The notes under the pieces: model-generated
What the model was told of the DNA's origin: nothing
Seen by the model: the letters and a program-made list of their open reading frames with translations, nothing else
Databases searched by the model: none
In this document: positions 9,848 through 53,092 of the stretch, one piece after another
How the letters are laid out: each line of letters starts with the position of its first letter
Numbering within the stretch: the first letter of the stretch is position 1
Made by a program: the position numbers and the translations under genes
Source of the DNA: Craspedostauros australis
Lineage: Eukaryota
Reading direction: 5' to 3'
Length of the DNA stretch: 53,092 nt
Assembly: GCA_030167865.1 (NCBI GenBank)
Contig: JALAGF010000198.1
Span: 1 to 53,092, forward strand

Positions 9848-9985
9848 GTTGTCGCTGTTGTCGCTCTGTTGGTGGTTGTGGTGGTGGTTGGAAGTATGGT
9901 GTTCTCCGAGTCAAGAACGGGCGACTTTTGCGCTTCCGAGATCAAATCGCACCTTCCAGCACTTGCCACCATGCACACCCAGCTA

Positions 9986-10042
9986 TTGCCCTGTCTCTTG
10001 CCCTGTCTCTTGCCCTGTCTCTTGCCCTGTCTCTTGCCCTGT
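9986..10042. repeat. 12-bp tandem repeat (TTGCCCTGTCTC) x~4.75
   Basis: Seen directly, ~140 bp upstream of the coiled-coil gene start. Confidence 0.95.
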
Positions 10043-19664: not shown

Positions 19665-22600
19665 ATGCGCGCGTTTCACATGATGGTGCTGTTGGCGGCA
19701 TTGCTCGTCATGGCATTGCTCCATCCCACCGCCGAAGCTGTCGTCGCAACCTACCGTTGCCCAGACGCGGGCGACGACATCACCATCGACATCGCCCATC
19801 AGCACATCCAGCTGCCCAACTTCGATGGCGGCCTGTGCCTTCTCACGATCCACGACCACAACGCCATGCGGATCCCCGTCGCGCGCAGCTACGATGGATA
19901 CGATTGGGAGATCTCGGCCGGTCGCTTTGCCGACACCCTCACCGTCCACTGCCGCTTCGATGACTCATCTACTTGCGAGATGATCCTGCCAGCTCTCACC
20001 TCGATCGGCCAAACCTACGTCCTCTCATCCTACGAATCGTATCTTGCCACCAACTCGGAATCATCCGTTGTCCGCAACCAGCGCGCGACGGTCGCTCGAT
20101 TCTTGGAGCAGGCCTCGTTTGGAGTGCAGCGCGCGGACCTGGACGGGTGGGATTGGAACGGACATGGTGCAGATGATCGATCGAACGGCATCATCCCCTT
20201 CCGACGCTGGATCGTGCGCCAGATGGACGAATCCATCACGCCGACATCATCCCACCGTGGATTCTTTCGCCAAAGAACCAATCCACGACTGACCCAGTCG
20301 TTCATCGGTGGACTACCTGGACCCAAACCATGTGATGTCGGTGCACGATTCCGAAGATACGTTTGCGTGTCTGAGGATCGAGGCAAGGAACTCACCGTGT
20401 CATCGTCATCTGCGGGTGGCACATCGCTGTTCGCGGTGTCAGTGGATGGCATCGTCCGGACCTTCATGCAGACACAAATCCTCTTGGTGAAGTTCGACGA
20501 TTGGGATGCCAGCATCGATCCTTCGTCGGCCGTCCCAATACAGCTGGACACGGCGTACGTGATCTGCGGAGACGATGCCACGTTCTATCAGAACGGCGTG
20601 GGATCGCCCTTGCGCGTGAAGCCCTTTGTGGCCGATGCTGACAATGGCGATGGCGATCAGGATGCTTGTCTGCAGTTCCTGCGAGGCAATCCTGCTGTGT
20701 ACTTCCCACCATCTCACCTTGATGGCATTGCCGTGCTGGACTTTGGCACGTACGATTCCATCGAAGGCAGCAGTCAGCAGCATCTCAAACGATTGGATGA
20801 GGTGTCGTACGACAGCGAGTACTGGAAGCATTCCAATGACGGTGACGACTACATCGTCCTCAATGAACTAGAACGCCAGCTCTGCGATGCGTACGATCAT
20901 GCATTCATTCAAATGAGCGAACCGATCATTGCGAGATTCCAAGATGCGAACGATGCTGCTGACCCGTTCAAGTTCCTTCTCTACGATCCGAGGTTGGTGC
21001 TTCGCGAGAATACGGTGCAGAATCCATTGGAGGATGGTGGCGGTGCAATGGCGGCCGCATCTGGCGACGCCATGCAGTGCGCGAATGTCCCGCGATCCTT
21101 CCTCAACGAAGATCACTGCTTCCTGAGCACGGCGGCAACAGCGTGCAGCTCCGCAGCTCCGCCGGTGTTCTCTGTGCAGTTGACGCCCGAATTCCTCGCG
21201 GCGGCGCACGCCATCACGGGACGATTGGTACGTGTTGGTATCTGTCTCGTCGTTGCTTCCATGCCAGTGTATGGTAAAGTGTGCAATGCGCACAACATGC
21301 CAAATCCACAAACTCTCACGCTGCCATGTCCGCTTATTCTTTGCATTCAATGTTTCATGCATTCCTACTTGTATGCCAATGCTTTTGTGCCAATGCCATT
21401 ACTCTATTGCACTCCATCGCGTGCTTTAAACACCACACTACCGTGATCGCGCCATACTTGTGCAGTACTACAGCATTGCGGGATTGCCGCTCAGTGACGA
21501 AACCTACCGCGATCGCAGCAATAACCTGCAATACTTCCAGCCCTCTCCATGTGGTCTGCACAAGAACCGTTGGTCTCGCTGGATGCAAGTCGACCAAACC
21601 AACTGTCAAAACAACGACCGAGTCGTCACGGAAGAAACGGAGCATGTCTTCGCAATTCTCTTGCAACCATCCTTCGATGATATCCCGTCATCCTTGCCTG
21701 CCATCAAAGATGTCCAGCTGTACCAAACGCAGGAGTGCAGCAAAGCAGACCGCGATATTATTGATTTAGGATTCGTCACAGGGCTGGACGGTACGTGTTG
21801 GCAACACGTGCATTCGTTGCATTCCAATGTCTATGACTTCTCGCAATGGACCATCGACCACCCCGGCGGCGCTCAACAAATCGAACAGCCATCACGGGAC
21901 GGATCCACGGAGCTCGTCCTTCCGGCTTCGCACCAGGCTGACGGCAACCACCGTTTCTACGCGAACATTCACAGTCGTGCTGCCGAATACCCGTTGCTGG
22001 GGAAGCTTGGAGACTACGTTCCGTATTCAGATCTGCCGCAGCAGTTGCAAGTGCGAGAGATCCAACGCCAGTTCGGAGTTCTGCCAACAAACGAAGCACG
22101 CGGCGCTGTCGTCGTCTGTGGTTCGGATGGGGAGGTGGCCAATGATCCCTTCCTAGGGACAGGCTTTGAGATGGAGTACTTCGACGACGAGAGATTCCGG
22201 GATCACGCCACACCAAGCTCCTTCACCAAACGGCAGAAGAATACAATCTGGTCTCACATCGCCCTCTTCGGGAAGGATCAACTTCGTCAGCGCGTCGCGT
22301 TTGCTCTCAGTCAAATTTTGGTCGTCACTCCCGCGCTGCTCAACGACGAGCACGGCACCGAGACAACAATTGCCTTCTACGACATCTTTGTCAGGAATGC
22401 CTTTGGAAACTACCGCGATATCCTGAAACAGGTATCGTTCCATGACAAGATGGGCGAGATGCTGTCCTCCTTGAACTCCAAGAGCATGCAGTACTCCATC
22501 GATTACGGTGAGAAGGCTTATCCAGATGAAAACTTCGCGCGCGAGATCATGCAGCTCTTCTCCATCGGTCTGGTTCGACTGAATTTGGATGGCACGGCCA

Positions 22601-25600
22601 TGATGGATGTCCACGGCAATGCCATTGCAACGTACGACAACTCCGACGTACGGTCCTTCGCCAGAGCATGGACAGGATTCCAACGTCAGCAAGATCGTGG
22701 GAACTACGAGAATCGTTTTTCACGGGTGGATCCAATGCAAATCAGCGGGTAAGTCATGACTCTTTGAGGTCGCACGGACTGATCATGCGCGACACGTTGC
22801 CAACTCGAAATCCATGTACTCTATCCTCATCCTTATTGTGTTCTTCGCTTGCCTCTATGAACACACATGCACTCCACACATGAACACATGCACTCCACAC
22901 ATGAACACGTGTACTCCACACATGAACACGTGTACTCCATCTTCATTTGGATGTTTGCACCCCCACACGAGAGCAGGCGACGGCGCGATCCGTTCCCAAA
23001 ATCTGACTTGCATGGTGGATACATCGGTGACCGATACCCACTGTGTGCGGACATGCCGGACAAGCATTTCGTCAAGAAGGGTGCCACGTATCGCTTGCTT
23101 GGTTCGCGATCCCTCCCGGAGTTGCAAGAAGACAAGGCGGATTGGGAGAAGGATCCAGAAGTGCTTCGGCTGGTGTTGCAAATCGCATCTCCCTTGCGCG
23201 AAGCTCTGTGCTCATCTGCAGCGAACGATGGCGAATGCAGTTTTCCAGGCAAGGTTGTGCTCGATGCATCGCTGGACTATTCCAACCTCCACACCGGAGA
23301 CCATCCAGAAATGATGGTGGACACGATCCGAACTGTGCAGGTCCAATCATCACCGGTTCCGATCTACTATGAGTATGTCCAACCGGCGTGCGTCCACCAA
23401 GCCTTCTTTCCGAATGCGCGGCGTGTGATGGACTATGCCAACGATGACGGAGTCATCCGCAGCAACATGTGTGCTGACCCACGTACCGCGGTCGCAGTGG
23501 AAAGCTGCTGTGACGATCTGTGGTGGAACGACGGCGGATTCCCTTGGGGATACAAGAACTGCGCATACCAAGGTGAACGACTCTCATACGATTCGGCGGA
23601 GTCAAGGTGCCACAGCATCGGCAAGATCGCCTGCGACTACGCCCAGATGCGTCCCTGGAAGGTTGGCATTTGCGCCAAGGATGTCTGGTCCACCATCGAA
23701 CGGCTGCCGATCTACTACCACTGGACCACTGCATCATGCTCCATCCAAGTCAAGGTGAATAGCTATGGGGAGATCGCTATCGTCCACAACCCACCTGATG
23801 ACTTCGCAGGACGCCGCGAAGTCCCGTCAAGCGTTTCCAATCGGTCTGAGAACTATTTCAAAACGAGCTGGACCAATGGCAGGCATCCCAATCCATCGAA
23901 CGGCTGCGCCGCGGATGGCGCGGCGTGCATGGCATTCGACAATGCCTGCATTTGCGACACTGCCCTGATGGAAGAGCCCGTCTTTCACTCTGCGTCATCT
24001 CCAAGCGCCACCTACAACAGCATCCTCTCGCGTCTACACATTGGCGCCTTCGATCCATTTCTCGCAGCAAGTAGCGGCGAAGCGTACACCGACAGAGGCG
24101 ACTGCAACGGCAGCATCCCAAACGCAAAGGTCTTGACCAAGGATGGGGATTGCAATTCCTTGGACAAGAACACAGTGTTCATGGTGAAGGATGAAAATGG
24201 AGTGACGCGGTACTTGAAAAACATGCATTCGACCGTTCGTATCACTGGCAGCAACGGCGGCACAGCGGAGTATTCTTTCCGTAATCCTGTCCATTTCATT
24301 AGTCTCGTCGATCCTGAAGTCCGCGATGCGTACTACGAAACCGACGCCGTGCTGGACGAGTACTTCTTTCATCCGAATCATCCACCGTTCTTGGCAAGTC
24401 GAATGATCCAGCGGTTTGGCATTTCGAATCCATCACCACGGTACATCCACGCAGTGGCACAGGCGTACACATCCGGATCGTACAATGGGATTGGGACGGG
24501 CACATACGGCAATGTGGGTGCTTTGGTGGCTGCGATCCTTCTGGACCGAGAGGCTCGTTGCACTGTCCTCGATTCTGATCCCGGGCACGGCCAGCTGCGG
24601 GAACCCATCTTGAAGCTCATTGCTTTTCTTCGGAGCATGGAGTACCACCATGACAGTCCCATGCTGTGGCCGCTGTTGTCGGACCTGACGGAATCGATTG
24701 GGCAATGCGCCTACGAAGCGCAGAGCATCTTCTCGTTCTTCCTTCCCGAATTCGCGCCGGCTGGCTCAATGTCCCAGTCCTCGTTGCATTCGCCGGAAGC
24801 GCAAGTGTTGTCGCCGTATACTGCCATTGGGTTCCTGGATGGGGTGTTCACAACAGTCAAGCATGGTGAGTTTTCGCAACTTGAAATCGGACATGTATCA
24901 TGTTTGTTTGCATTTGCTTTGCATTCGTTTGCATTTGCTTGCATTTGTTTGCATGCGCCTGCTCTTGATCAAGCTACCGGAGTTGCTACGTTCTCGTACG
25001 AGCACTCGCATGGTTGCCAATTGCTGTTACTGTTACCGCTGCGATTATTGAAGACATCATTCTTGTATTCGCACGATTTGTATTTGTATTTACGTGCTCA
25101 CCTCTTTGCATCCGTGAGTGTGGACGTATTCACTGTTCCGTGTCGTTCTCCTACCTATGACGACACACAAACCAAAACCAAACTCAGGTATCGTGCCCAT
25201 GGATTGCCGCAGAGGGCTTGGCAAATTCAAGCCGAGGGGTCTGCGACAGTGCGTCTTGTCCACCTCGTTCGATGACACTTCCCGATCGTTCGGTGTTTTG
25301 CAGTATCGTGCGGACCCATTGAGTAGCGAGCACTTGGTGGACGAATTGGCGTTGCTGTTGACATCGTCTCGACTGCGCCAGATCAACCGAGACATGATTT
25401 TACAAGCGATCGAACCATTCATGTCGACCGATACGCCAAAGGCTACCCGACTTGCCCAGCAGCTCATGGCCGCCACGCCTGAATTCCATGCGACGAACCT
25501 CGTCCGCTCCAACGGCGAATCTGAAGCGTTACCGGACCCAGGCAGCGCGCTTGCGAGAAATCATCCATACAAAGCAGTGGTGTATTTGATGCTCGAGGGT

Positions 25601-27163
25601 GGCATGGACTCCTTCAACCTACTGGTTCCAAAGGAGGACTGCAATTCCAAGGACTTGTACGACGAATACAAGACAGTGCGCGGCAAGGTTGCGCTGAAGA
25701 AAAGCGAGCTGCTCAGCATCGATGCGGCTGGATCGAATCAGCCTTGCGATACGTTCGGAGTCAACGAGGCGATCCCCATTCTCAGGGATCTCTACGATGA
25801 CAAGGACGCAACCTTCTTTGCCAACACGGGTGTCCTCGGCAAGCCGGTTTCGAAATTGGACTGGGATGTAGGCACCAAATCTCAGCTCTTCTCCCACAAC
25901 AGTCAGCAAGATGAAGTGTACAGCATCGACGTGACCAACGAATTCATGAATACGGGAGTGGGTGGGCGCATCCTCGATGTGCTTCGCCAGCGCGGGTTTG
26001 TCGCATCGGCAGCGTCCGTGGGCACGAGCACCACGATGCTGTCTGCCCCGTACCATCCCGACAACGTCGTCCGAGAAATCCCACAGGATGAGCCAATCGA
26101 ACTGAATGGGCGACCGGAGGTAGAAGGGATGAATTCCTTGCTCCTCGAGATGAATACATTGTCGCAACCGGACAGCAGCGTATTCGGAGATCTGTGGTCA
26201 TCAGCCGTCTCCGACGCGGTCAGCAACAATGACGAGGAACTTCACATCTACAAGACGTTCACTGTCGGCAAGTTTCCATCGGGGGGTCTGGGCGAGAATT
26301 TCCGCTCGGTCGCTCAATGGATCAAGTCCAGGGATCACAGAGCTGTCGAACGGGAGGTCATCTTCGTTCGTCACAGCGGGTACGACCACCACGCGGTGAC
26401 CAGCAGCAGCAACCTCAAGAAGCAGCTGAAGGAAGTCAACAAGGCGCTGTCAGCGTTCGTCGCAGAGATGAAGGAGCAAGATATCTGGGACAGCATCGCT
26501 GTTGTGTCCGGATCCGAATTTGGTCGGACGTTGAGCCCAAACTCTGGTGATGGAACTGATCACGGGTGGGGAGGCCATGGCTTTCTGCTCGGTGGAGGCT
26601 TGAAGGGGGGCACCATCCTGGGAGAGTACCCCTCGGACCTCACGCAGGCCGGACCTAGCATCATTGATCGGGGCCGCGTCATCCCAAGCCTACCATTGGA
26701 AGCAGAGTGGCAGGCAATCGCACAATGGATGGGAGTCACGCACCAGAGTGACTTGGACACCGTGCTCCCCAACCGCGACAGCTTCGATCATTGCTCCTTG
26801 TTCTCTGACATGGATCTATTCCTGGACGGCAAAGTCCATCACTCGGCGTGCTCTGGTATCAACGACGACATGTCCATGGATACGCACAATACGACGTGTC
26901 GTGATCGGACCATTGCGATGCATCCAGCCACGATCGAGGAGATCAAAGTTGATGTCAGCGAGGCAAGCAGCAATGGCAGCGACACAGACAATGCCAACAT
27001 CGCCGTGTACAGTGACGGACGTGGGCCACAGTGCGAATGCCCATCGTCGAGCGCGGCATCAGCATCCAATGCGGGATTCTATTGGCGCTTTGTTCAACTC
27101 GCGATGCATGCATTCCTCTCTTCGCTTTTGTGCGCTGCCATCGTCTCTCCCTTGACGGGCTGA
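19665..27163 (+). CDS. Large secreted DUF1800 + DUF1501 fusion protein (~2236 aa), 4 exons (19665-21227, 21466-22748, 22977-24865, 25188-27163)
   Basis: Signal peptide MRAFHMMVLLAALLVMALLHPTAEA. DUF1800 motifs ARFLEQASFG, DQLRQRVAFALSQILVV, NAFGNYRDIL, PDENFAREIMQLFSIGL, SNPSPRYI, GQLREP. DUF1501 motifs LEGGMDSFNLLVP, LFSHNSQ, SEFGRTL, GTDHGWGG. Three GT-AG introns all join in frame (phases 0, 2, 1). Confidence 0.88.
22857..22939. repeat. 21-bp intronic minisatellite ATGAACAC(A/G)TG(C/T)ACTCCACAC x~4
   Basis: Seen directly inside intron 2 (22749-22976) of the DUF1800/DUF1501 gene. Confidence 0.92.
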
Positions 27164-28948: not shown

Positions 28949-31900
28949 ATGTCGCATGAAACCCTCTCAACGAGCAGCTCCTGCGAGGATGATCACTCTG
29001 GGGGAGGGGATGACCATTCCAAGGGAGGATCGACGTTCGATGTGGCATCGATGGGAACGAATCCATATCAACCATCAAAGGATGGAGGTGACGACGATGA
29101 CCTTGATCTGCACTCCACGATCGGAAGGAAGGAGGCCAATCGTGTGCGATGGTCCAAGATCCTCGTCTTCTGCGTCCTTTCCATCGCCACGGGGATCATG
29201 GCATACTTCACCAACGAGGTGATGTCTCGCGATGAGGAAAAGGCATTCGAGACCGAGGTGAGTTTCGTCCTGCGTGGGTCTTGGCTGGTCATCGCAGATG
29301 GATGATTTGGTTTCGTTGTGTCTCTGTATCTGCATCTTCATCTTCATCTGCATTTACATCTGCGTTTACATTTGTCGTTGCGGAAAGCTCTCAAAGCACC
29401 ATGACCTGATCTTCTGTGTCTAACACTTCATCCAACTCTAACTTATGTACGGCATGCGCATGGTGTACCATAGTTTTCCAACTTCGGCATGGAGATATTC
29501 GAAGCGTCGGTGATCACTGCACAGAACATCTTCGCGACCATCGAATCCATGAGCCACGGGATTACTTCCTTCACCCTCGCTACCAACGCAACTTGGCCAT
29601 TCGTCACAATACCTCACTACAGCTTCCGCGGGTTCCACCTGCTGGAACTGTCCGGTTCCAAGTACCTGGGGTTCTGTCCATTCGTACCCGTCGACGATCG
29701 ACAGGAGTGGGAAGAGTACTCCACGAACAACGCGGGTTGGATCAACGATCCGATCCCCGATAGCCTGTTCAACCCATCCTTCAAACCGGAGGTCACCATC
29801 ACCAAGGGACCAGTTGAGGGTGACGATAGCACAGCCAGCAATGAGACCGACACGCAGTCTGGACATTGGGGTGGCAATTCAACTCTCACCAGCACAAGCA
29901 TCCCGCCATTCATTCACCGGGTACCTGATGGCTCATCTTTGGTTGAATCAATGAGACTGCCCCCGGTCAAGGAGGATCAAGATTACGACGGCGATCACTA
30001 CGTCGTGGGATGGCAGACGACGCCGCCAACCGTGCCCATGATCAACCTCAACTTCTTGAGCATTGGCGATGACTTCACGAGAGTCTACGATCAACTGCGC
30101 AGGTCGCGTTCCCCAGTGCTTTCGGAAATGATCATCTATTCCAACGCACCGATCCCATACCCATCCGCATGGCCCAGCAGCTACCTCCTCCAGCCAATCT
30201 TCCCATCCTTCGATCAGAATGCGTCGATGGTAGGCATGTTTCTTGCCAGCGTCCCGTGGCACAAGTACTTCGAAAAGATCGTGCCGGCTGGAGCTGGGGC
30301 CATCGATCTGGTCATCAAGAGCACATGCGATCAAACCATCAGCTACCGCATAACTGGGCCAGACGTGGTGCACTCCGGGAATGGTGATCATCACGACAGT
30401 CAGTTTGACCACCTCGAGTTAATGACCCAATTTTCCGTCGTGCAAAAGGCAAGCGCGGCTGGGGTGTGTCACTACATGATACACCTGTACCCCACGAAAG
30501 ACTTTGAATCGGATTTCATCACGAGCACGCCATTGGCGTACACGGTTGGCGTCGTGCTCGTCTTTATGCTGACGTCTGCAGTCTTTCTCCTCTACGACTG
30601 CTTCGTGGAACAACGGCAGAAGAAGGTGATGCACTCAGCTGCCCGGACGAATGCGCTGCTCACATCTCTCTTCCCTGCCCAGTTCCGTGATCGCCTGATC
30701 GAAGACCATGATGCCGCATTGCAGGATGCGAGGGAAATCGACATGGAGGGCATGGAACCATCTGCGAGCATGTCCACACCGGCTCACGGTACAGGTCTCC
30801 TCGCACGAAGTCGGGCCGCCTTCCGTGGCAAGCCCAGAGGACGAGGAGGACTACTGCCGACCCTTGGTGCTACAACGTCATCTTCGAGAAACCTCAAGAA
30901 GCTAAACAGCTTCGCCGACTACGAGGCCGAAAAGGCGCGGCTGCTTCTATCGGAGCCCATCGCAGATCTGTTCCCCTCCGTCACGGTCCTGTTCGCGGAC
31001 ATCGCCGGCTTCACAGCATGGGCCAGCGTGAGGGAGCCATCCCAAGTCTTCACTCTCCTTGAGCAGATCTACAGCACGTTCGACGCCATCGCGAAGCGAA
31101 GAGGCATCTTCAAGGTCGAAACGATTGGAGATTGCTACGTCGCTGCATGCGGCCTTCCGAATCCTCGTGACGATCATGCCGTGGCCATGCTGCGGTTTGC
31201 GCGAGAGTGCCTGCATCAAATGACCCACTGCGCACAGTCGTTGGAAGTCCTTCTGGGGCCTGACACCGGCGACCTGACCATGAGGTTCGGTATCCATTCT
31301 GGTCCTGTCACTGCTGGCGTGCTACGCGGCGAGAAGACTCGCTTCCAGCTGTTCGGCGACACCGTCAACATGGCTGCAAGGATGGAGAGCACCGGCCTTG
31401 AAAATCGTATCCATCTGTCAGCCTCCACAGTCAAGCTACTCGCGGCCGCCGACAAGTCGCACTGGGCAGTCGCAAGAGACGACCTCGTCGAAATCAAGGG
31501 CAAGGGCAAGGTCCAGACGTACTGGGCATCCGGTCGTAGCCATGGACGTGGTCGTCGCGGTTCCCACGGCTCCGTTGAGTTGGCAATGTCCGCCATAAAT
31601 GTGGCAGATGCCGCCATTTCAGTCGACTCCAAGCATCCATTGAGCCAACAAACATCAACGCGATTCAAAGGCACCTCGCAAAGAAACTCAGGGTGCGCGG
31701 TGGCAACTACGACCTCCATTTCCATGGCTGGAACTATAACCACGCAGGCGAGGTCCATGTCGACGCTATCAACGATCACGGGAGCACCACCGCCGCCGCC
31801 TCTACTATCTACACCTTCATCTACATCACCGGTAATTCAACATAGGACCGTGGACAGCAAGCGCGCTCAGCAAGAGAAGAAGATGAAGCGCCTCGTGGAG

Positions 31901-33313
31901 TGGAATGCAGATGTACTGCAAGGCCTGCTGCAAAAGGTGGTCGCGATGCGAGATCCGCGCCCCACTTCAGCGAAAAGAAGCAGGCCGAACATGGCCAGCA
32001 ATGAATTCAGCCTATCAAGTTTCTCTGCCATCACACCTGAAGAAGGCAAGTTCAACCAGACCGTGTTAGATGAAGTGAAAGAAATCATCGAGCTTCCGGA
32101 CAGGGCCTCCAAGTACAAGTGCGACCCAGCGACTGTGAAGTTGGATCCCGCCGTCATATCCGAGCTGCGCGAATATGTCACCGCCATCTCGCAGATGTAC
32201 CGACACAACTCCTTCCATTGCTTCGAGCATGCCTCTCACGTCGTCCAATCTGTGACGAAGCTGCTGTCGCGTGTCGTGACGCCCGACAAACGAATCGACC
32301 GTGTCAACAGCGGCAAGGACAACGCCACCAGTAACAACGGCGAGAGCGAGGAATGGACGTACCAGCAGCAGGATATGAACAAAGGCAACAACAGAAACTC
32401 GGGCAGAACCAAGCAGCTGCACGAGTACACGTATGGGATTACATCGGATCCATTGACTCAGTTCGCTTGTGTGTTTTCCGCTTTGATCCACGATGTGGAT
32501 CACTGCGGCGTTCCAAACACGGTGCTCGTCAAGGAATGCATGGACGTAGCCCTCCACTACAAGAACAAGAGCGTCGCCGAACAAAACTCTGTCGATCTCG
32601 CATGGGAGCTCCTGGGCCACGACAACTTTGCGAACCTCCGACGATGCATCTGCGCGACGCAGTCCGAGCTCGAACGGTTCCGACAGCTCGTCGTGAACTC
32701 CGTCATGGCTACTGATATTGCCGACAAGGATCTCGGAGCCTTGCGCAAGGCACGATGGGAACGGGCCTTCGCAGAGCAAGATGACGGGGAGAGCGACTGC
32801 AACCGCCCGAAAAGCTTGGCGGATTCATCCGATGGGGTCAGCATTTCAGACGCCGCGCATAGCAGTGGCCCGAACGCCAAGCAGCAGTGCAGCAAGCACG
32901 AACGCCGATTGAGCCGTTTGATGGCACAGAACCGCAAGGCCACCATCGTCATCGAGCATCTCATCCAGGCGTCGGATGTGTCGCACACGATGCAGCACTG
33001 GCACGTGTACCTGAAGTGGAACGAACGGCTGTTCCATGAGATGTACGCAGCCTACCTGGCGGGCAGATTTGGAGAAGATGGTGCCAATCCGGCAGAGGGG
33101 TGGTACGCCGGCGAGCTGTCATTCTTCGACTTCTACCTCATCCCACTGGCCAAGAAGCTGTCCACCTGTGGAGTCTTCGGGGTTGCTTCGGACGAGTACC
33201 TGAACTACGCCACGGCCAATCGTCAGGAATGGGAGCGCAAGGGGAAGGATGTGGTACAGAGGTACATGTCGAAGTATCAGATGCAACAAGGATCTCAGCC
33301 AAGCAAGAAGTGA
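28949..33313 (+). CDS. Receptor-type class III (guanylate-like) cyclase fused to a class I cyclic-nucleotide phosphodiesterase, copy 1 (1382 aa; exons 28949-29257, 29474-33313)
   Basis: TM1 ILVFCVLSIATGIMAYFT, CHASE-like TWPFVT...WEEYS region, TM2, cyclase VLFADIAGFT/KVETIGDCY/GIHSGPV/LFGDTVNMAARMES, PDE FHCFEHASHV/IHDVDHCGVPN/MATDI/ASDVSH. Phase-0 intron GTGAGT...CATAG. Confidence 0.93.
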
Positions 33314-35613: not shown

Positions 35614-38600
35614 ATGGCGGAGCACAACCGCCATAGCCTCGACGAGAACATGTCAGACGGAACCAATTCATTGTCGAGCTTGGCTCACAATGGCAACTCG
35701 ATGATCGGATCTGAAATGGGCGCAGCGAGGATGAAAGAAAACGCGCAGCAGATGTCGCGTGACGAATTGAACGACGAGGAGGACCACTTCACAACAATTG
35801 GCGCGAAGGAGACCAACCGAGTTCGACTTTCCAAGTTCTTGGTGGTCTTCGTCCTGACTGTTGCCGCCGGGATCATGGCATACTTCACCTACAAGGTGAT
35901 GTCTCAAGAAGAGCAAGACTCTATGGAAACGGAGGTGAGTTTGGCAATATAATGGAAGCTCTGTTGATCTCTGTCTTTGTCTCTCTCTCTTTGAATCGCA
36001 TCGCATCGCCTCTCTGCTCATACGCACTTACACTTCAGTCCTCACCATCACCATTCCCCTGCCCTCTACTTCTGCCCCTGTGCATTGCACATATGCCATA
36101 CCATACCATGCATCATCATGTAACAGTTCACAAACTACGCCACGGAGATAGTTGAAGCATCAGTGCTATCTGCGCAGACCATCTTCGCCACGGTCGAGTC
36201 CATGAGCTTCGTCATCACATCATATGCTCTTTCCACCAACGCGACTTGGCCATTCGTCACGATCCCACACTACAGCTTCCGCGGTTTCCATCTGCTCGAG
36301 CTATCGGGTTCACGATACCTCAGCTTCTGTCCATTCGTTTCAAGTGAGAATCGAGAGAGGTGGGAAGAGTATTCCGTCGCCAATCAGGGTTGGATCAACG
36401 ATCCCGTTCCCGACAGCCTGTTCAACCCATCGTCTGGCTCGCCATCTGGCGCCTCCGGAGGTCCGTCCGGCACAAACAACCACGGCTCTAGTGGAGGTCG
36501 ACCCACTGGCGCTTCCGGTCCTGCCGATGACAGTGCTGGTGGCGGCCCACCTGCGTGGGTCACTGCTGGTTCCGACAGTACAGGAAGAGCAGGTGGAACA
36601 GCGGGCAGACCTCCGTCGGCTGGCGGACCTCCGTTGACCGACGAACAAGCCGGCAGCCAGGCTGTAAATGTAACACAACAAGGAGATAGGCCCACGGGGC
36701 CAAGTCGAGGTGGGGGTGGCATCCCTCCTTTCATCCACCGCCTACCTGAGGGCGCCTCATTCTCCGACTCGTTGAGATTACCGCCGGTTAGAGAAGAACG
36801 GGAGTTTGATGACTACGTGGTTTCATGGCAGACCACCCCACCTATTCAACCCGTGATCAACCTCAACTTCTTGAGCCTCAGCGATGGCTTCCTCACTGTC
36901 TACGATCAAGTGCGCAAATCAAATGTTCCAGCGCTCTCGGAAGTCGTTATATACTCCAACTCAACAAACATATCAAGAGGGGAATGGCCAACCAGCTACA
37001 TCGTGCAACCGATCTATTCATCCTTTGAGACGAACGCATCGATGGTAGCCATCTTCGTCGCCACCATTCCTTGGGACAAGTACTTCGAAAATATTGTCCC
37101 TGCGGGCGTCCAGCCCATCGATCTGGTGATCAAGAGCACATGCAAGCACACTATCAGCTACCGCATCTCTGGACACGAAGTCATGCATACTGGGGCTGGC
37201 GATTACCACGACAATCGATTCGACCATCTGGAGCTGTCCGTCAAGTTCTCAATCTTGGAAGATACCGAAGACCTGGACGTATGCCACTACTCGATGAGTC
37301 TATATCCAACAGAAGACTTTGAGTCTGAGTACATCACAAGCACTCCTTTGGTATACACGATCGTCGTCGTCCTGGTCTTCATGATGACTTCTGCAGTTTT
37401 CATTCTATATGATTATCTCGTTCAAGACCGGCAGAATACCGTGATGCATTCAGCTGTTCGAACGAATGCTATCGTCACATCTCTCTTTCCCGCACAGTTC
37501 CGCGATCGATTGATTGAGGATCATGACGCCGCAGTGAAGGACACAGAGAGGCACAAGGTTGAAGGCAGAGACCAGATCGCGCCATCTCGCGGCTCGAATC
37601 TTTTCACAAGAGGCAAAGCCATTCTCCGAGGAGCATCAAGACTGACAGGCAATGTGGCATCATCTGCCCGCAATCATGCGAGTGCCTCAAGGAAGATCAC
37701 CAGACGGATGGAAAGCTTCGTTGACTACGAGGCCGAAAAGGCGCGGCTGCTTCTATCGGAGCCCATCGCAGATCTGTTCCCCTCCGTCACGGTCCTGTTC
37801 GCGGACATCGCCGGCTTCACAGCATGGGCCAGCGTGAGGGAGCCATCCCAAGTCTTCACTCTCCTTGAGCAGATCTACAGCACGTTCGACGCCATCGCGA
37901 AGCGAAGAGGCATCTTCAAGGTCGAAACGATCGGAGATTGCTACGTCGCTGCATGCGGACTTCCGAATCCTCGTGACGATCATGCCGTGGCCATGCTGCG
38001 ATTTGCGCGAGAGTGCCTGCGTCAAATGGATGGCTGTGTGCAATCGTTGGAAGTCCTTCTGGGACCTGACACCGGCGACTTGACCATGAGGTTCGGTATC
38101 CATTCTGGTCCTGTCACTGCTGGCGTGCTGCGCGGCGAGAAGACTCGCTTCCAGCTGTTCGGCGACACCGTCAACATGGCTGCAAGGATGGAGAGCACCG
38201 GCCTTGAGAATCGCATCCATGTGTCCGCCGACACAGCCAAGCTGCTCGCGGCGAATGGCAAGTCACACTGGACTGTGGCAAGAGACGATCTCGTCGAAAT
38301 CAAGGGCAAGGGCAAGGTCCAGACGTACTGGGCATCCGGTCGTAGCCATGGGCGTGGTCGTCGCGGTTCCCACGGCTCCGTTGAGTTGGCAGTATCCGCC
38401 ATTCAAATCGAAAGCAATGGCATCGATCCGACTACAAGCGTGCAGACACCAGCCACTGCCAAACAAGACGCCGCTCACCCCGGCACATCATGTCCGATGA
38501 CAACTGCAACTTCCATCTCAATGGCAGGTAGCGGAACGCCACAGTCAGCCCTTGGATCAACCACGCCCATGACGGCAGGAGAAACACCTTCGCCGCCACT

Positions 38601-40164
38601 ACCGTCACTGACATCGCCAACGATGCATCGGAGTGACCACACGAATAGCAAGCAGGCCCAACAAGGAAGGAAAATGCAGCGACTTGTGGGATGGAATGCA
38701 GAGGTCCTTCAGGGATTGTTGCAGAAGGTGGTGGCGATGCGAGATCCACGATCCTCTTCTTCGTCGTCGTCGTCGTCGTTCACAAGGAGCCGACCGAACG
38801 CATCAGGTGATCATTCAGATCCGGCGAACTTCCTTGCAGTGACGCCTGGTGATGACAAGCCTGATCGCACCGTCCTAGATGAAGTGAAAGAGATCATCGA
38901 GCTTCCGGACAGGGCCTCCAAGTACAAGTGCGACCCAGCGACTGTGAAGTTGGATCCCGCCGTCATATCCGAGCTGCGCGAATATGTCACCGCCGTCTCG
39001 CAAATGTACCGACAGAACTCGTTCCATTGCTTCGAGCATGCCTCTCACGTCGTGCAATCGGTGACGAAGTTGCTGTCGCGTGTCGTGACGCCCGACAAAC
39101 GAATCGACTGCATCAGCAGCGCCGACACCAACGGCGACAATCGCACCGTGGAGTGGGCGTACCAGCAGCAGAGCATGAACAATGCGAACAACACTGGCGC
39201 GATGCCATTGGCATCGTTGTCACGCAAGGCATCGACCAGCACGGGAAGGGCCAAGAAGCTGCACGAGTACACGTACGGGATCACATCGGATCCATTGACT
39301 CAGTTCGCCTGTGCGTTCTCCGCCTTGATCCATGATGTGGATCACTGCGGCGTTCCAAACACGGTGCTCGTCAAGGAAGGCGTGGGCATCGCCATCCACT
39401 ACAAGAACAAGAGCGTCGCGGAGCAAAACTCTGTCGATCTCGCATGGGAACTCCTAAGTCATGACAACTTTGCGAATCTCCGACGATGCATCTGCGCGAC
39501 GCAGTCCGAGCTCGAACGGTTCCGACAGCTCGTCGTGAACTCCGTCATGGCTACTGATATCGCTGACAAGGATCTGGGAGCCTTGCGCAAGGCACGATGG
39601 GAACGGGCCTTCGCAGAGCAAGATGACGGGGAGAGCGACTACAACCGCACATGCAGCACAACTGACCATTCCGACACTGGTAGAACCAGCGACGGGGGAC
39701 AGGACAAGACCTCGCAAGGCGATCAGCAACAAGGCCGCACGAGCGCCAAGCAGCGCCGACTGAATCGCCTGATGGCACAGAACCGCAAGGCCACCATCGT
39801 CATCGAGCATCTCATCCAGGCGTCGGATGTGTCGCACACGATGCAGCACTGGCACGTGTACCTGAAGTGGAACGAACGGCTGTTCCATGAGATGTACGCA
39901 GCCTACCTGGCGGGCAGGTTCGGGGAGGACGGCGCCAATCCGGCAGAGGGGTGGTACGCCGGCGAGCTGTCATTCTTCGACTTCTACCTCATCCCACTGG
40001 CCAAGAAGCTGTCCACCTGCGGAGTCTTTGGGGTTGCTTCGGACGAGTACCTGAACTACGCCACGGCCAATCGTCAGGAATGGGAGCGCAAGGGGAAGGA
40101 CGTGGTACAGAGGTACATGTCGAAGTATCAGACGCAGCAAGGATCTCAGCCAAACAAGAAGTGA
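35614..40164 (+). CDS. Receptor-type cyclase/phosphodiesterase fusion, copy 2 (1452 aa; exons 35614-35934, 36127-40164)
   Basis: Same architecture and same intron position (…ETE|F…) as copy 1. Intron GTGAGT...AACAG (35935-36126). Confidence 0.93.
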
Positions 40165-50712: not shown

Positions 50713-53091
50713 TCATGCTTCCTCATCTACTGATCCATCAGATATCGACACTGATACCTTCGTGTCTGATTCTTGCATGTCGCTGACCATCTTCCATGGG
50801 GCGTGCTCCACCAAGCCGGCGCCCTTCGTTGCTGATCCCTTCCTCATCAGTGCAAACGACATCTGGTGCATCAGACCATCGATGTAGGATGTTCCCACCG
50901 ACAACGTGGAAAACACACCGAAATGACCGCAGACGATGGAGTCATCAATCACTGTCCTGTCAGCAAATGTGAGCAGCGGAGCTTCATAGATGCGGAATCC
51001 AAAGAACAGCATCTTTCCCTGGATGGTCGCTCCTCGGAATCGCAACGCAGCGTTCATCATCGGTGTGCCCCAAACAACTGACTCGAAAGACCACGACTGA
51101 AAGAACTGGCTGTAGGTAAAGTAGACCATGTGCAATGAAATACACCATGGTCTTCCGCGTGCAACGCTTCCCAAGAGAGTGATGGTGACGATCACTCGAT
51201 AGAGAACGAGCCAGACGAAGGTCTGGATGATGGTGGATGCCGCAATGGCGATCGGAACCAGCGCCGTTGTCGTGTCTGGCTTGAGCGCGATTGCCAACAG
51301 CTCATATGATGGGATGAGGCTGGCCGCCACTGCCGCTAGCATGATGATATGCAGCAGGGTGTTGTTGATCATGAGCATCCAGAACTCGGATGTGGAGAGA
51401 GGCACGTTGCTTGGATGATGGTCGGTGTTGATGATATCGCTGGTGACGTGGGTGCCAGGAGTCACCATGGCTCTGCGGATGGTCACACCAGGGCCGCATG
51501 CCAGTGTCATGCCGATGGTGCTGTCTTCGATGGTGATCGCCTTGTATTGGCCATCTTCTTCGACATCGAGGTCACAAAAGGAGATGAAGGACCGCCTGAC
51601 CGTGACGAGGTCCAGCTTGGATGGGGGGAACAGCATTGTCATCGCTCTCGATCTCATATCGATGTCCATGCCGTGTGCCATGAGGACGAGGTTCCAAAGT
51701 TGGGAGAACATTGTCAAGTCGAGGACCAGTGTTGTTCCGACGAAGAAGTGGAAGTCGCAAGCCCAGTCAGAGAACTTGGAGAATGTCCCTGTCCGCGCTG
51801 GACCGGATCGCTTCTTGCCGATCAGCACCCACTTGAGGATGATGCTGGTGATCAAGAAGCAGGCGGACGTGAGGCCAAAGAGGACGATCCAGTAGACGAT
51901 GGGGGAGTACCTCCAATCTGGAAGCCCATCTCCGACCAACTGATCAGCAGCCACGAAGCATGCGAAGGCGAAGTACAGCTCGATGGCGAGCCAAACAAGC
52001 TTCATCGTTCCCAGCACGATCGATGGGCTGGTGGATTTGTCGGATGCCGTGTCCCCACTCGCTGTTCCAGTTGCGGATGCATCGTCATCGCCCTTGAGAG
52101 TCGACGAAGGAGCATCGACAAATGCTGGGTTGCCTCTGATTGAGGTGTTTGGTGGTGCTTGAGCACCTTCCACGAGCACGGATATGCACTGAACCTGGCA
52201 GCCAGAGCCGACGCTGGCTCCAGGAAGCAAGGCGCCATTGACCGTAGCGTTGGATCCAACCCGAGTCTTGCGAAACCTCACGCTGGGGCCTTCTTGCTCA
52301 TCCTTCCACGGGCCGAACACGCGGCATCGGATGTTTGTGTTGACCGTGGCGCCAGCATCAACCTTGACCAGGTCAAACTCCCGGACGGTCCCGTTCACGC
52401 TGGCCGAGCGATGGATGTCGGCACCCATCAGGTAGTAGAACAACGTCATCAAAGGTGTGTTGCCGATGATGCGGCCGACGAATCGTTCCCACATCTCGAC
52501 CAACCGATCGACGAACCACCACCTGATGAAATAGATGTTGGTCTGATTGGCGTACCCTTCTGTGTATCTGCCAATGACAATCCACTTCGAGAGGATAATC
52601 ACGAAGGTGAGCGTAATGGCCCAGACTGGGACGATCAAGGGTAGCAGCACCCATTCATGACCGGAGAGGACGTCGGAGTCGGCAATGGCTTTTCCAACTT
52701 CGTACGCTGGGACGATGGGGAGCGAGAAGATGAGGACCGCGACGAGCGCACCGATGGCCTGGATGATGGCGACGGTCGATTGGGACAGAAACTTCTCATT
52801 TGGGATGGAGAGGAGCCTCTTGAGGGTTGGGAGATTGGTTGGTAGGGGCTCTCCCTTTGATGCCTCGAGATAAGTCTTGAGATCCATCACTCTCGGAAAG
52901 AGCTGGATGATGTTTGCGGGAAGGGTCGTGTTGTATCGCTCAGAAAGGGACTGGCGGAGCTCCAGCTCCATCATGGAAGACAATCCAACATCCTTCCACT
53001 CATCATCGGGGCTGACTTCGGTTCCTGTACAGCTCTTCACAAGGTCATAGAAGTCCATCTCTTCGATGTTGACGTTCTCGATGATGGACAT
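50713..53091 (-). CDS. NRPS-like protein: phosphopantetheine carrier domain + Pls/PosA-type membrane-embedded triple terminal domain (probably 5'-truncated by the window)
   Basis: Carrier motif DEWKDVGLSSMMELELRQSL, then three units of paired TM helices followed by KWxxIG / TP....Y..MGA.I / beta-helix-like segments (LSKWIVIGRY..FIRWWFVDRL..NTPLMTLFYYLMGADI; ILKWVLIGKK; WGTPMMNAALRFRGATI). The frame is open to the window edge. Confidence 0.8.
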   Translation of the reverse strand: MSIIENVNIEEMDFYDLVKSCTGTEVSPDDEWKDVGLSSMMELELRQSLSERYNTTLPANIIQLFPRVMDLKTYLEASKGEPLPTNLPTLKRLLSIPNEKFLSQSTVAIIQAIGALVAVLIFSLPIVPAYEVGKAIADSDVLSGHEWVLLPLIVPVWAITLTFVIILSKWIVIGRYTEGYANQTNIYFIRWWFVDRLVEMWERFVGRIIGNTPLMTLFYYLMGADIHRSASVNGTVREFDLVKVDAGATVNTNIRCRVFGPWKDEQEGPSVRFRKTRVGSNATVNGALLPGASVGSGCQVQCISVLVEGAQAPPNTSIRGNPAFVDAPSSTLKGDDDASATGTASGDTASDKSTSPSIVLGTMKLVWLAIELYFAFACFVAADQLVGDGLPDWRYSPIVYWIVLFGLTSACFLITSIILKWVLIGKKRSGPARTGTFSKFSDWACDFHFFVGTTLVLDLTMFSQLWNLVLMAHGMDIDMRSRAMTMLFPPSKLDLVTVRRSFISFCDLDVEEDGQYKAITIEDSTIGMTLACGPGVTIRRAMVTPGTHVTSDIINTDHHPSNVPLSTSEFWMLMINNTLLHIIMLAAVAASLIPSYELLAIALKPDTTTALVPIAIAASTIIQTFVWLVLYRVIVTITLLGSVARGRPWCISLHMVYFTYSQFFQSWSFESVVWGTPMMNAALRFRGATIQGKMLFFGFRIYEAPLLTFADRTVIDDSIVCGHFGVFSTLSVGTSYIDGLMHQMSFALMRKGSATKGAGLVEHAPWKMVSDMQESDTKVSVSISDGSVDEEA

Positions 53092-53092
53092 T

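Follow-up and report, generated by a model that had tools for sequence, protein, structure and literature searches.

To our knowledge, the terminal domain of the Pls/PosA synthetases is the only template-free, membrane-bound peptide-bond polymerase of its kind. In Pls of Streptomyces albulus and PosA of Acinetobacter baumannii, a carrier domain is followed by approximately 700 residues comprising three pairs of transmembrane helices (six in all) and three soluble units, and these three homologous units have been modelled as a pseudo-trimer of left-handed β-helices. AlphaFold/RoseTTAFold modelling of the PosA terminal domain, in the parts of the published account drawn on here (PMC10522769), gives six bent helices and three five-turn left-handed β-helices in roughly three-fold packing, with two helices between each transmembrane pair and its β-helix; the same parts describe the domain as having no experimental structure, and PDB sequence, Foldseek and VIA searches returned no solved Pls/PosA terminal domain. 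According to the sections of PMC9205021 used here, the acceptor of Pls is either a lysine that diffuses freely or the growing chain, which at no point forms a covalent bond with the enzyme. Here, we describe an open reading frame (ORF) whose product, P0001, has a carrier domain and a Pls-like membrane domain in this same order. It lies at the end of a 53,092-nucleotide stretch, contig JALAGF010000198.1 of assembly GCA_030167865.1 (Craspedostauros australis), which we refer to as the window. Hosts of Pls/PosA are bacterial or fungal, whereas those of the P0001 family are algal, and where Pls/PosA have an amino-acid adenylation domain the relatives of P0001 have a fatty acyl-AMP ligase (FAAL). 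We present evidence that the ORF of P0001 is probably the 3' portion of a single-module gene whose product is a membrane acyltransferase of the order FAAL, carrier, Pls-like domain, with the FAAL encoded beyond base 53092, and that this enzyme probably receives a fatty acid, not an amino acid, as its load.

P0001 is encoded on the minus strand, as are all of its features given below, by an unbroken frame of 792 codons and a stop codon (50713..53091, with the stop at 50713-50715). The frame is open to the edge of the window: it begins at 53091 with an ATG (53091-53089), and a single base of the window lies upstream of this first codon. An earlier note, made from the sequence alone, had placed the adenylation domain of this gene outside the window. 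When compared by BLASTP with its nearest relative, P0040 (1534 residues), P0001 aligns from its residue 8, equivalent to P0040 residue 706, to residue 748, and about 700 residues precede the aligned start in P0040. The ORF thus reads as approximately the C-terminal half of a larger gene truncated at the edge of the window. Judged from this relative and others, the gene very likely runs on past base 53092 into a FAAL, which some 700 further residues upstream of that base would form. An exact search of metagenome contigs with the 40-mer at the window end matched no stretches. P0001 is a genuine coding region that is native to its surroundings. Its G+C content at third codon positions (GC3) is 0.70 versus 0.43 at second positions (GC2), and it keeps the consensus at all strongly conserved columns, both of which indicate that it is under constraint. 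The G+C content of the gene (0.548) is that of the whole window (0.541), which has no N, and the neighbouring genes look eukaryotic, making bacterial contamination unlikely.

The relation of P0001 to classical Pls/PosA proteins was examined with profiles. The earlier note had assigned to this gene the layout of ε-poly-L-lysine synthetase with its TIGR02353 terminal domain. TIGR02353 does match P0001 (E 1.8e-15, 56.3 bits), with residues 135-434 covering profile positions 28-314 of 695, yet this score falls well short of the curated cutoff, 423.1 bits, and true members reach 486-656 bits; a control protein named as Pls/PosA, P0034, scores 589 bits against this profile and 423 bits against TIGR01733, the model for amino-acid adenylation domains. 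Homology over the full length is nevertheless evident when families rather than single proteins are compared: a 30-row profile of the FAAL-linked side aligns with a 14-row classical profile over 697 columns (hhalign, 100%, E 1.6e-53), from the carrier to the end of the third soluble unit, at 17% identity. A language-model feature search of the Atlas likewise gave Pls/PosA as the nearest clusters (score 0.95-0.97). Residues kept on both the classical and the FAAL-linked side include K169, W170, W192, G223, D240, P322, K420 and W443, as well as G474, G527, P594, G675, G687 and H723. The Pls/PosA-type layout therefore stands as far as domain order and full-length homology are concerned; equivalog status does not, given a score of 56 against 423 bits and the placement of P0001 in a separate clade.

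This separate clade is defined by relatives that are FAAL-linked. In searches of 5.8 billion clusters and of 1.84 billion representatives the closest proteins are 36-42% identical to P0001, and the number of matches in the latter search was 1005 at E <=0.001, falling to 446 at <=1e-10 and to 102 at <=1e-30. Relatives of full length have 1350-1750 residues and carry a Pfam AMP-binding domain and a DIP2-like AMP C-terminal domain before the carrier. In all seven FAAL-linked relatives scanned individually (P0020, P0021, P0003, P0025, P0028, P0029 and P0010) the best NCBIfam match is a FAAL-type or fatty-acid-ligase profile at about 170-315 bits (PRK05850, FadD21, FadD32, the N-terminus of PRK05691, or PRK07768), and TIGR01733 scores 62-156 bits, under its cutoff of 317. 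In the 18-row family alignment A1, the fatty-acid-AMP ligase profile NF004509 recognises 13 of the 17 relatives at E <=1e-45, and with TIGR01733 no relative reaches that level; P0008, which lacks an adenylation domain, is one of the four that NF004509 misses. The best PDB matches of the P0040 N-terminus are FAALs, led by 7r7e (1.6e-65) and 3kxw (1.9e-61) and followed by FadD32, FadD23, FadD28 and 3pbk.

A maximum-likelihood tree of the C-terminal domain (101 rows, 654 columns, LG+G4), with branches supported by the Shimodaira-Hasegawa-like approximate likelihood ratio test (SH-aLRT), was made from those rows of alignment A2 that have at least 520 residues over the domain. Adenylation domains were typed by short sequence motifs. 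Fourteen classical rows form one clade (SH-aLRT 100), twelve of them of amino-acid type, one probably so and one untyped. P0001 falls into a separate clade of 59 rows (SH-aLRT 100, stem length 0.65) in which 31 rows are of FAAL type, seven are probable FAALs, 20 have no typable adenylation domain and none is of amino-acid type, and within it P0040 is the sister of P0001 (SH-aLRT 100). Further features were seen in P0028 and P0008, which together with P0002 are Seminavis robusta or related proteins. P0028 has a long insert with no assigned domain between the AMP-binding region and the carrier (PF23024 ends at about residue 534 and PP-binding starts at about 968). At its start, P0008 (845 residues) looks, on visual comparison, similar to the central part of P0002, so P0008 may be a truncated gene model.

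The carrier domain occupies residues ~10-80 of P0001 (52852..53064). Pfam PP-binding (PF00550) matches residues 24-75 with 22.1 bits, above the gathering score of 20.8; the AlphaFold2 model has a four-helix carrier at ~10-80 with a pLDDT (the model's per-residue confidence) of 85-96; and VIA recovers the carrier-protein fold over residues 10-80 with Z scores of about 9-10.5. The predicted phosphopantetheine attachment site is Ser39 in GLSS (G36-L-S-S39; codon 52975..52977). Alignment A3 (72 rows) has this residue in every one of its 63 filled rows and, in A2, its column holds Ser in 14/14 classical rows and in 86 of the 88 FAAL-side rows counted. The carrier proposed in the earlier note on the strength of its GLSS motif is thus supported by profile, fold and conservation. 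The surrounding motif separates the two branches. P0001 reads VGLSSMMELELR (VGLSSM) and FAAL-linked rows have GL(S/T)S(M/L) followed by ELR, whereas the classical motif, without exception in 14 rows, is GG(H/N/Y)S(L/M/I), in most cases continuing with LA (GGHSLLA). P0001 also departs from GG(H/D)SL, which we take to be the typical thiolation-domain motif of nonribosomal peptide synthetases (NRPSs). The GLSS..ELR motif is of the kind found in polyketide acyl carrier proteins (ACPs), and these are the best PDB sequence matches of the P0001 carrier, albeit weak ones (E 0.03-0.2). A PDB sequence search with the whole of P0001 gave weak carrier and hexapeptide matches alone (E >=0.03).

Downstream of the carrier, P0001 consists of three repeats of a transmembrane hairpin and a soluble unit. 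Kyte-Doolittle hydropathy peaks occur in three pairs, at residues ~105-127/148-170, 360-382/397-420 and 572-596/612-640, and agree with the long helices of an AlphaFold2 model computed on A3 (mean pLDDT 90.7, pTM 0.91) in which low pLDDT is confined to residues 1-10, 337-350 and 774-792. Each repeat of the model has two long helices, two shorter helices and short β strands. The first hairpin (52576..52782) has helices at ~104-123/126-138 and 146-172 and ends in KWIVIGR; it is followed by unit C1 (residues 173-335, 52087..52575), made of two helices and a left-handed β-helix, and lying within the TIGR02353 match (residues 135-434). The second hairpin (helices 354-386 and 396-424, 51820..52032) ends in the similar motif KWVLIGK and precedes unit C2 (residues 425-560, 51412..51819), with modelled β strands at 496-539. 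The third hairpin (helices 567-602 and 609-638, 51178..51393) leads into unit C3 (residues 639-772, 50776..51177), which holds the conserved Asp716 and Gly722-His723. The C-terminal tail with the stop codon (residues 773-792, 50713..50775) is unconserved and of low confidence (pLDDT <50 for 774-792), and lies beyond the end of the alignment with P0040. The order of these elements is the same as in the PosA model, as far as the sections of PMC10522769 used here describe it.

The three units are homologous to one another. When A1 was split into its units and these were compared as profiles with hhalign, the first unit matched the second at 97.6% (E 2.9e-12) and the third at 97.5% (E 7e-12), and the second matched the third at 75.8% (E 2.3e-5); plain BLASTP of unit against unit is weak, with a best E of 0.008. 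Their fold is that of hexapeptide acetyltransferases. Among 48,161 PDB representatives compared with VIA-align, the top match is 3ect (Z 12.2; 149 residues, root-mean-square deviation 3.2, model residues 173-333), and 3srt, a second hexapeptide acetyltransferase, scores Z 11.5. Foldseek found 42 PDB chains at E <=0.001, and among the matches listed most are serine, galactoside and maltose acetyltransferases, the best cited being a serine acetyltransferase (8i09, E 1.8e-5). Neither the Foldseek nor the VIA search of the PDB gave a full-length match. These results uphold the arrangement read from the sequence in the earlier note, which had claimed three units of a transmembrane pair plus a soluble domain and expected about six paired membrane segments. 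They also agree with its claim that canonical condensation and thioesterase motifs are missing: Pfam Condensation and Thioesterase have no match in P0001 at E <=1, HHxxxDG is absent, and the sole GxSxG, GASVG at residue 291, lies within a β-helix region. Both domains are thus ruled out by profile and motif. The ratio of Lys plus Arg to Asp plus Glu is 2:1, 5:0 and 2:0 after the second, fourth and sixth transmembrane helix, and 1:4, 1:3 and 1:2 in the three short inter-helix loops. Because basic residues are in excess after these helices and acidic residues in the loops, the carrier and the three β-helix domains should face the cytoplasm.

Conserved residues point to a single candidate active site and distinguish the two branches. 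From residue 36 onward, A3 has 40 columns with a conservation of 85% or more, and P0001 carries the consensus residue in every one; conserved columns at residues 1, 6 and 10 were disregarded, as MAFFT had pulled them onto the N-termini of full-length proteins. His723 of unit C3 (codon 50923..50925) is a candidate catalytic base by analogy with hexapeptide acyltransferases, and its column holds His in 64 of the 68 filled rows of A3 and, in A2, in 13/14 classical rows and 88 FAAL-side rows. The equivalents of His723 in C1 and C2 are not His, and C1 has a conserved Arg257; since the two other units lack this His, the pseudo-trimer probably has a single catalytic site. The block around the C3 histidine reads QTHLFEDRVMK in classical proteins, whereas in FAAL-linked rows (C/A/G)-G-H alone is kept, and position 716 is Asn in 13/14 classical rows and Asp in 87 FAAL-side rows. 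At ten clade-specific positions (D195, R196, E202, G206, R237, K364, P490, S491, D716 and G722) P0001 matches the FAAL-side consensus every time, whereas classical rows vary or differ there. The loss of the acidic FED block beside the histidine would fit an acceptor other than a cationic diamino acid.

FAALs load carriers rather than coenzyme A; LpxA and LpxD illustrate that the left-handed β-helix fold can use acyl-carrier thioesters as donors; and hexapeptide acyltransferases employ a catalytic His or an Asp-His pair. On this background we propose that the FAAL would adenylate a fatty acid or another carboxylic acid that is not an α-amino acid and attach it in thioester linkage to the phosphopantetheine carried by Ser39. 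The carrier would then present the thioester to a single site on the cytoplasmic β-helix trimer, with His723 of C3 as its putative base and Asp716 nearby, where an acceptor, either free or embedded in the membrane, would take up the acyl group through an amine or hydroxyl. The six helices would hold the enzyme in place and might also serve in product release or export. As the donor would probably lack a second nucleophile, a single acyl transfer per cycle, giving an N- or O-acylated lipid or metabolite, seems likelier than a homopolyamide. The earlier note had offered a polymerising or an acyl-transferring system that might make a homopolyamide or an acylated surface polymer. Its acyl-transferring half is the better supported; a homopolyamide is unlikely because the TIGR02353 score lies below the cutoff, the clade is separate and typed as FAAL, and the carrier motif is in the style of polyketide ACPs.

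Several points weigh against the proposal that P0001 belongs to a FAAL-loaded acyltransferase. The FAAL of this gene itself would lie beyond the window, and an ATG as first codon permits a stand-alone start. The 20 of 59 clade rows without a typable adenylation domain are mostly short and may be fragments, but some are perhaps genuinely devoid of such a domain. Typing of FAAL and NRPS rows in the tree was by short motifs, with independent profile and PDB checks for part of the rows, and the tree consists of matches to the P0001 query alone, so that classical Pls/PosA are thinly sampled (14 rows). The hexapeptide fold is not mirrored in Pfam, as P0001 has no Hexapep (PF00132) match at E <=1 and its sole Hexapep-related match is LbH_EIF2B (14.1 bits, E 0.048). 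The roles given to His723 and Asp716 are carried over from other hexapeptide transferases, and FAAL-like domains need not load plain fatty acids.

The alternative that survives best, though we consider it unlikely, is a polymerase: the FAAL would load a hydroxy- or amino-fatty acid, and the Pls-like domain would iteratively extend a free chain to give a polyester or polyamide that passes through the membrane. The full-length homology to the polymerising domain of Pls/PosA is in its favour, as are the retained C3 histidine, KW..IG motifs and six helices, and a growing chain that is a free acceptor, as in Pls (PMC9205021, in the sections cited above), would suit it. The loss of the HLFEDRVMK block after the histidine and the replacement of Asn716 by Asp argue the other way, since these changes imply an acceptor site that differs from the classical one; moreover, the literature search tied no such polymer to these genes. 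Were this alternative true, ochrophyte algae would have re-tooled Pls as a template-free lipid-polymer synthase whose product, an aliphatic polyester or polyamide, is extruded across the membrane, and this product would be, by our own speculation, a candidate source of resistant aliphatic algal cell-covering material.

A second alternative, for which we see still less room, takes the ATG at 53091-53089 as the start of a stand-alone protein of carrier and transferase that is loaded in trans by a separate ligase. The carrier fold at residues 10-80 would be complete in such a protein, and relatives of 800-890 residues without an adenylation domain exist (e.g., P0008, P0047, P0063, P0069 and P0071). 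These short relatives, however, begin 60-90 residues before the carrier match rather than ~10, and truncated gene models may be among them. This alternative would also require the window end to fall exactly one base short of the start codon, whereas any of dozens of internal methionines in a gene of 1500 codons could give the same coincidence. Finally, the sister protein P0040 is full length and has a FAAL.

That P0001 belongs to a true Pls/PosA synthetase making a cationic homopoly(amino acid) such as ε-polylysine is highly improbable. The domain order and the TIGR02353 similarity would agree with it, and eukaryotes can have such enzymes, as fungal ε-polylysine synthetases are reported in the part of PMC7179176 cited here. 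P0001 nevertheless scores 56 bits where 423 are required, falls outside the classical clade with full SH-aLRT support in a clade where none of the 38 typed members is of amino-acid type, and differs from 14/14 classical rows in its carrier motif and in the block after the histidine. A decaying or inactive gene copy, which the 36-42% identity of the best relatives and the multiple copies in Seminavis robusta might suggest, is hardly credible for a frame open over 792 codons that keeps every one of the 40 conserved positions, has a GC3 of 0.70 and gives a confident model.

The enzyme that we favour, a FAAL-loaded membrane acyltransferase, combines traits of two further known systems. The N-terminal halves of the relatives match the FAAL-ACP loading didomains (7r7e, 3kxw, FadD32 5ey9 and FadD23 8hd4) at E 1e-48 to 1e-65, and the carrier of P0001 resembles the polyketide ACPs. 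The carrier of such a didomain, however, passes its acyl group to a ketosynthase or condensation domain, whereas the sole downstream partner of the P0001 carrier is the Pls-like membrane domain. Hexapeptide acyltransferases, among them the maltose and galactoside O-acetyltransferases, serine acetyltransferase and LpxA/LpxD, share the fold of the units, the packing of three β-helices and, by analogy, a conserved His as likely general base. P0001 differs from these trimers in that its three "subunits" are fused, split by transmembrane hairpins and diverged, with C3 alone keeping the His, and in that the donor carrier is fused in cis.

We found no description of a FAAL-linked Pls-like architecture in the literature, nor a characterised member. 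In Chrysophaeum taylorii, synthases with N-terminal adenylation-like domains have been described in which left-handed β-helix domains are atypical parts of unassigned function (PMC10366177); the portion of that account considered here makes no reference to membrane topology or to a Pls/PosA link. Three proteins of C. taylorii, P0186, P0151 and P0188, are among the relatives. A survey of FAALs (PMC12820801), in its parts used here, reports that FAAL counts among eukaryotes are highest in diatoms, with 16 in Seminavis robusta, and lists eukaryotic fusions of FAALs with polyketide synthases and NRPSs; hexapeptide domains do not appear in those parts of its main text, and its five supplement files contain no occurrence of TIGR02353, NRPS_term_dom, IPR012728 or Seminavis.

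The organisms in which FAAL-linked relatives are named are three ochrophyte algae alone, one diatom and two pelagophytes. The diatom Seminavis robusta has eight named relatives in the main searches and one more in a later search, showing a multi-copy family, and the pelagophytes are C. taylorii, with the three proteins mentioned above, and Aureococcus anophagefferens. The database names of relatives ("FadD21", "non-ribosomal peptide synthetase" and "D-alanine ligase") fail to describe the architecture and are misleading. Matches from fungi and from Chromera velia are of amino-acid type, as indicated by Pfam AMP-binding_C (PF13193) and, for Chromera, also by short sequence motifs. With A5, the alignment of the pelagophyte clade, as seed, a pattern scan in which 185,579 prokaryote species were represented by one genome each matched 34 stretches, none with the FAAL-linked form; since two peptide patterns were used, this is weak evidence that bacteria lack it. 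Three of the 34 stretches hold relatives, all of them classical Pls/PosA in bacterial metagenome-assembled genomes (TIGR02353 486-656 bits, TIGR01733 388-437 bits), and the contigs concerned (L001-L003) are from Proteobacteria, Myxococcales and Fimbriimonadaceae. Among named records, proteins of this kind thus appear so far in ochrophyte algae alone.

The remainder of the window also has a eukaryotic appearance. Neighbours of P0001 include two guanylate-cyclase/phosphodiesterase fusions, a MORN-repeat protein, an XPG-like nuclease, a weak NCBP3/Tho1-like match and low-complexity ORFs rich in Ser, Asn and Lys. These genes and the diatom and pelagophyte relatives fit the eukaryotic alga suggested in the earlier note, a fit that falls short of proof. 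The two fusions are encoded by paralogous ORFs on the plus strand, approximately 3 kb apart (29489-33313, 1274 residues, and 36163-40164, 1333 residues), each with a guanylate/adenylate cyclase domain (~167 bits) and a 3'5'-cyclic nucleotide phosphodiesterase domain (~83 bits), and represent a tandem duplicate of a cyclase-phosphodiesterase fusion gene. Two adjacent plus-strand ORFs cover consecutive segments of DUF1800, the first (21460-22752) profile positions 56-206 and the second (22867-25275) positions 224-360; the DUF1800 part looks split by an intron or a frameshift, and an overlapping ORF that follows (25118-27163, plus strand) matches DUF1501 with 116 bits. The DUF1800/DUF1501 pair is mostly bacterial; here these ORFs sit among eukaryote-like genes. 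On the minus strand, a 935-residue ORF without a Pfam match (7040-9847) is of low complexity in its N-terminal half, with runs of Ser, Asn, Thr and Lys including KKKKKKKK, and its C-terminal half has the look of an extended coiled coil with an abundance of E, K, Q and L; nowhere in the window is AT skew more extreme than at 8001-10000 (-0.39). The minus-strand ORF adjoining P0001 (47814-49175, 453 residues) has no Pfam match and contains an Asn run (NNSSNNNNNNH).

The locus described here places a Pls-type machine in algae and probably couples it to a loader of the fatty-acid type. At the level of 50% identity, the family to which it belongs numbers about 100 representatives (E <1e-30), and one diatom has several paralogues. 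If the proposed mechanism is true, these enzymes would make new acylated lipids or polymers in diatoms and pelagophytes, and would provide a natural contrast for the questions of how the Pls domain selects its acceptor and whether it polymerises.

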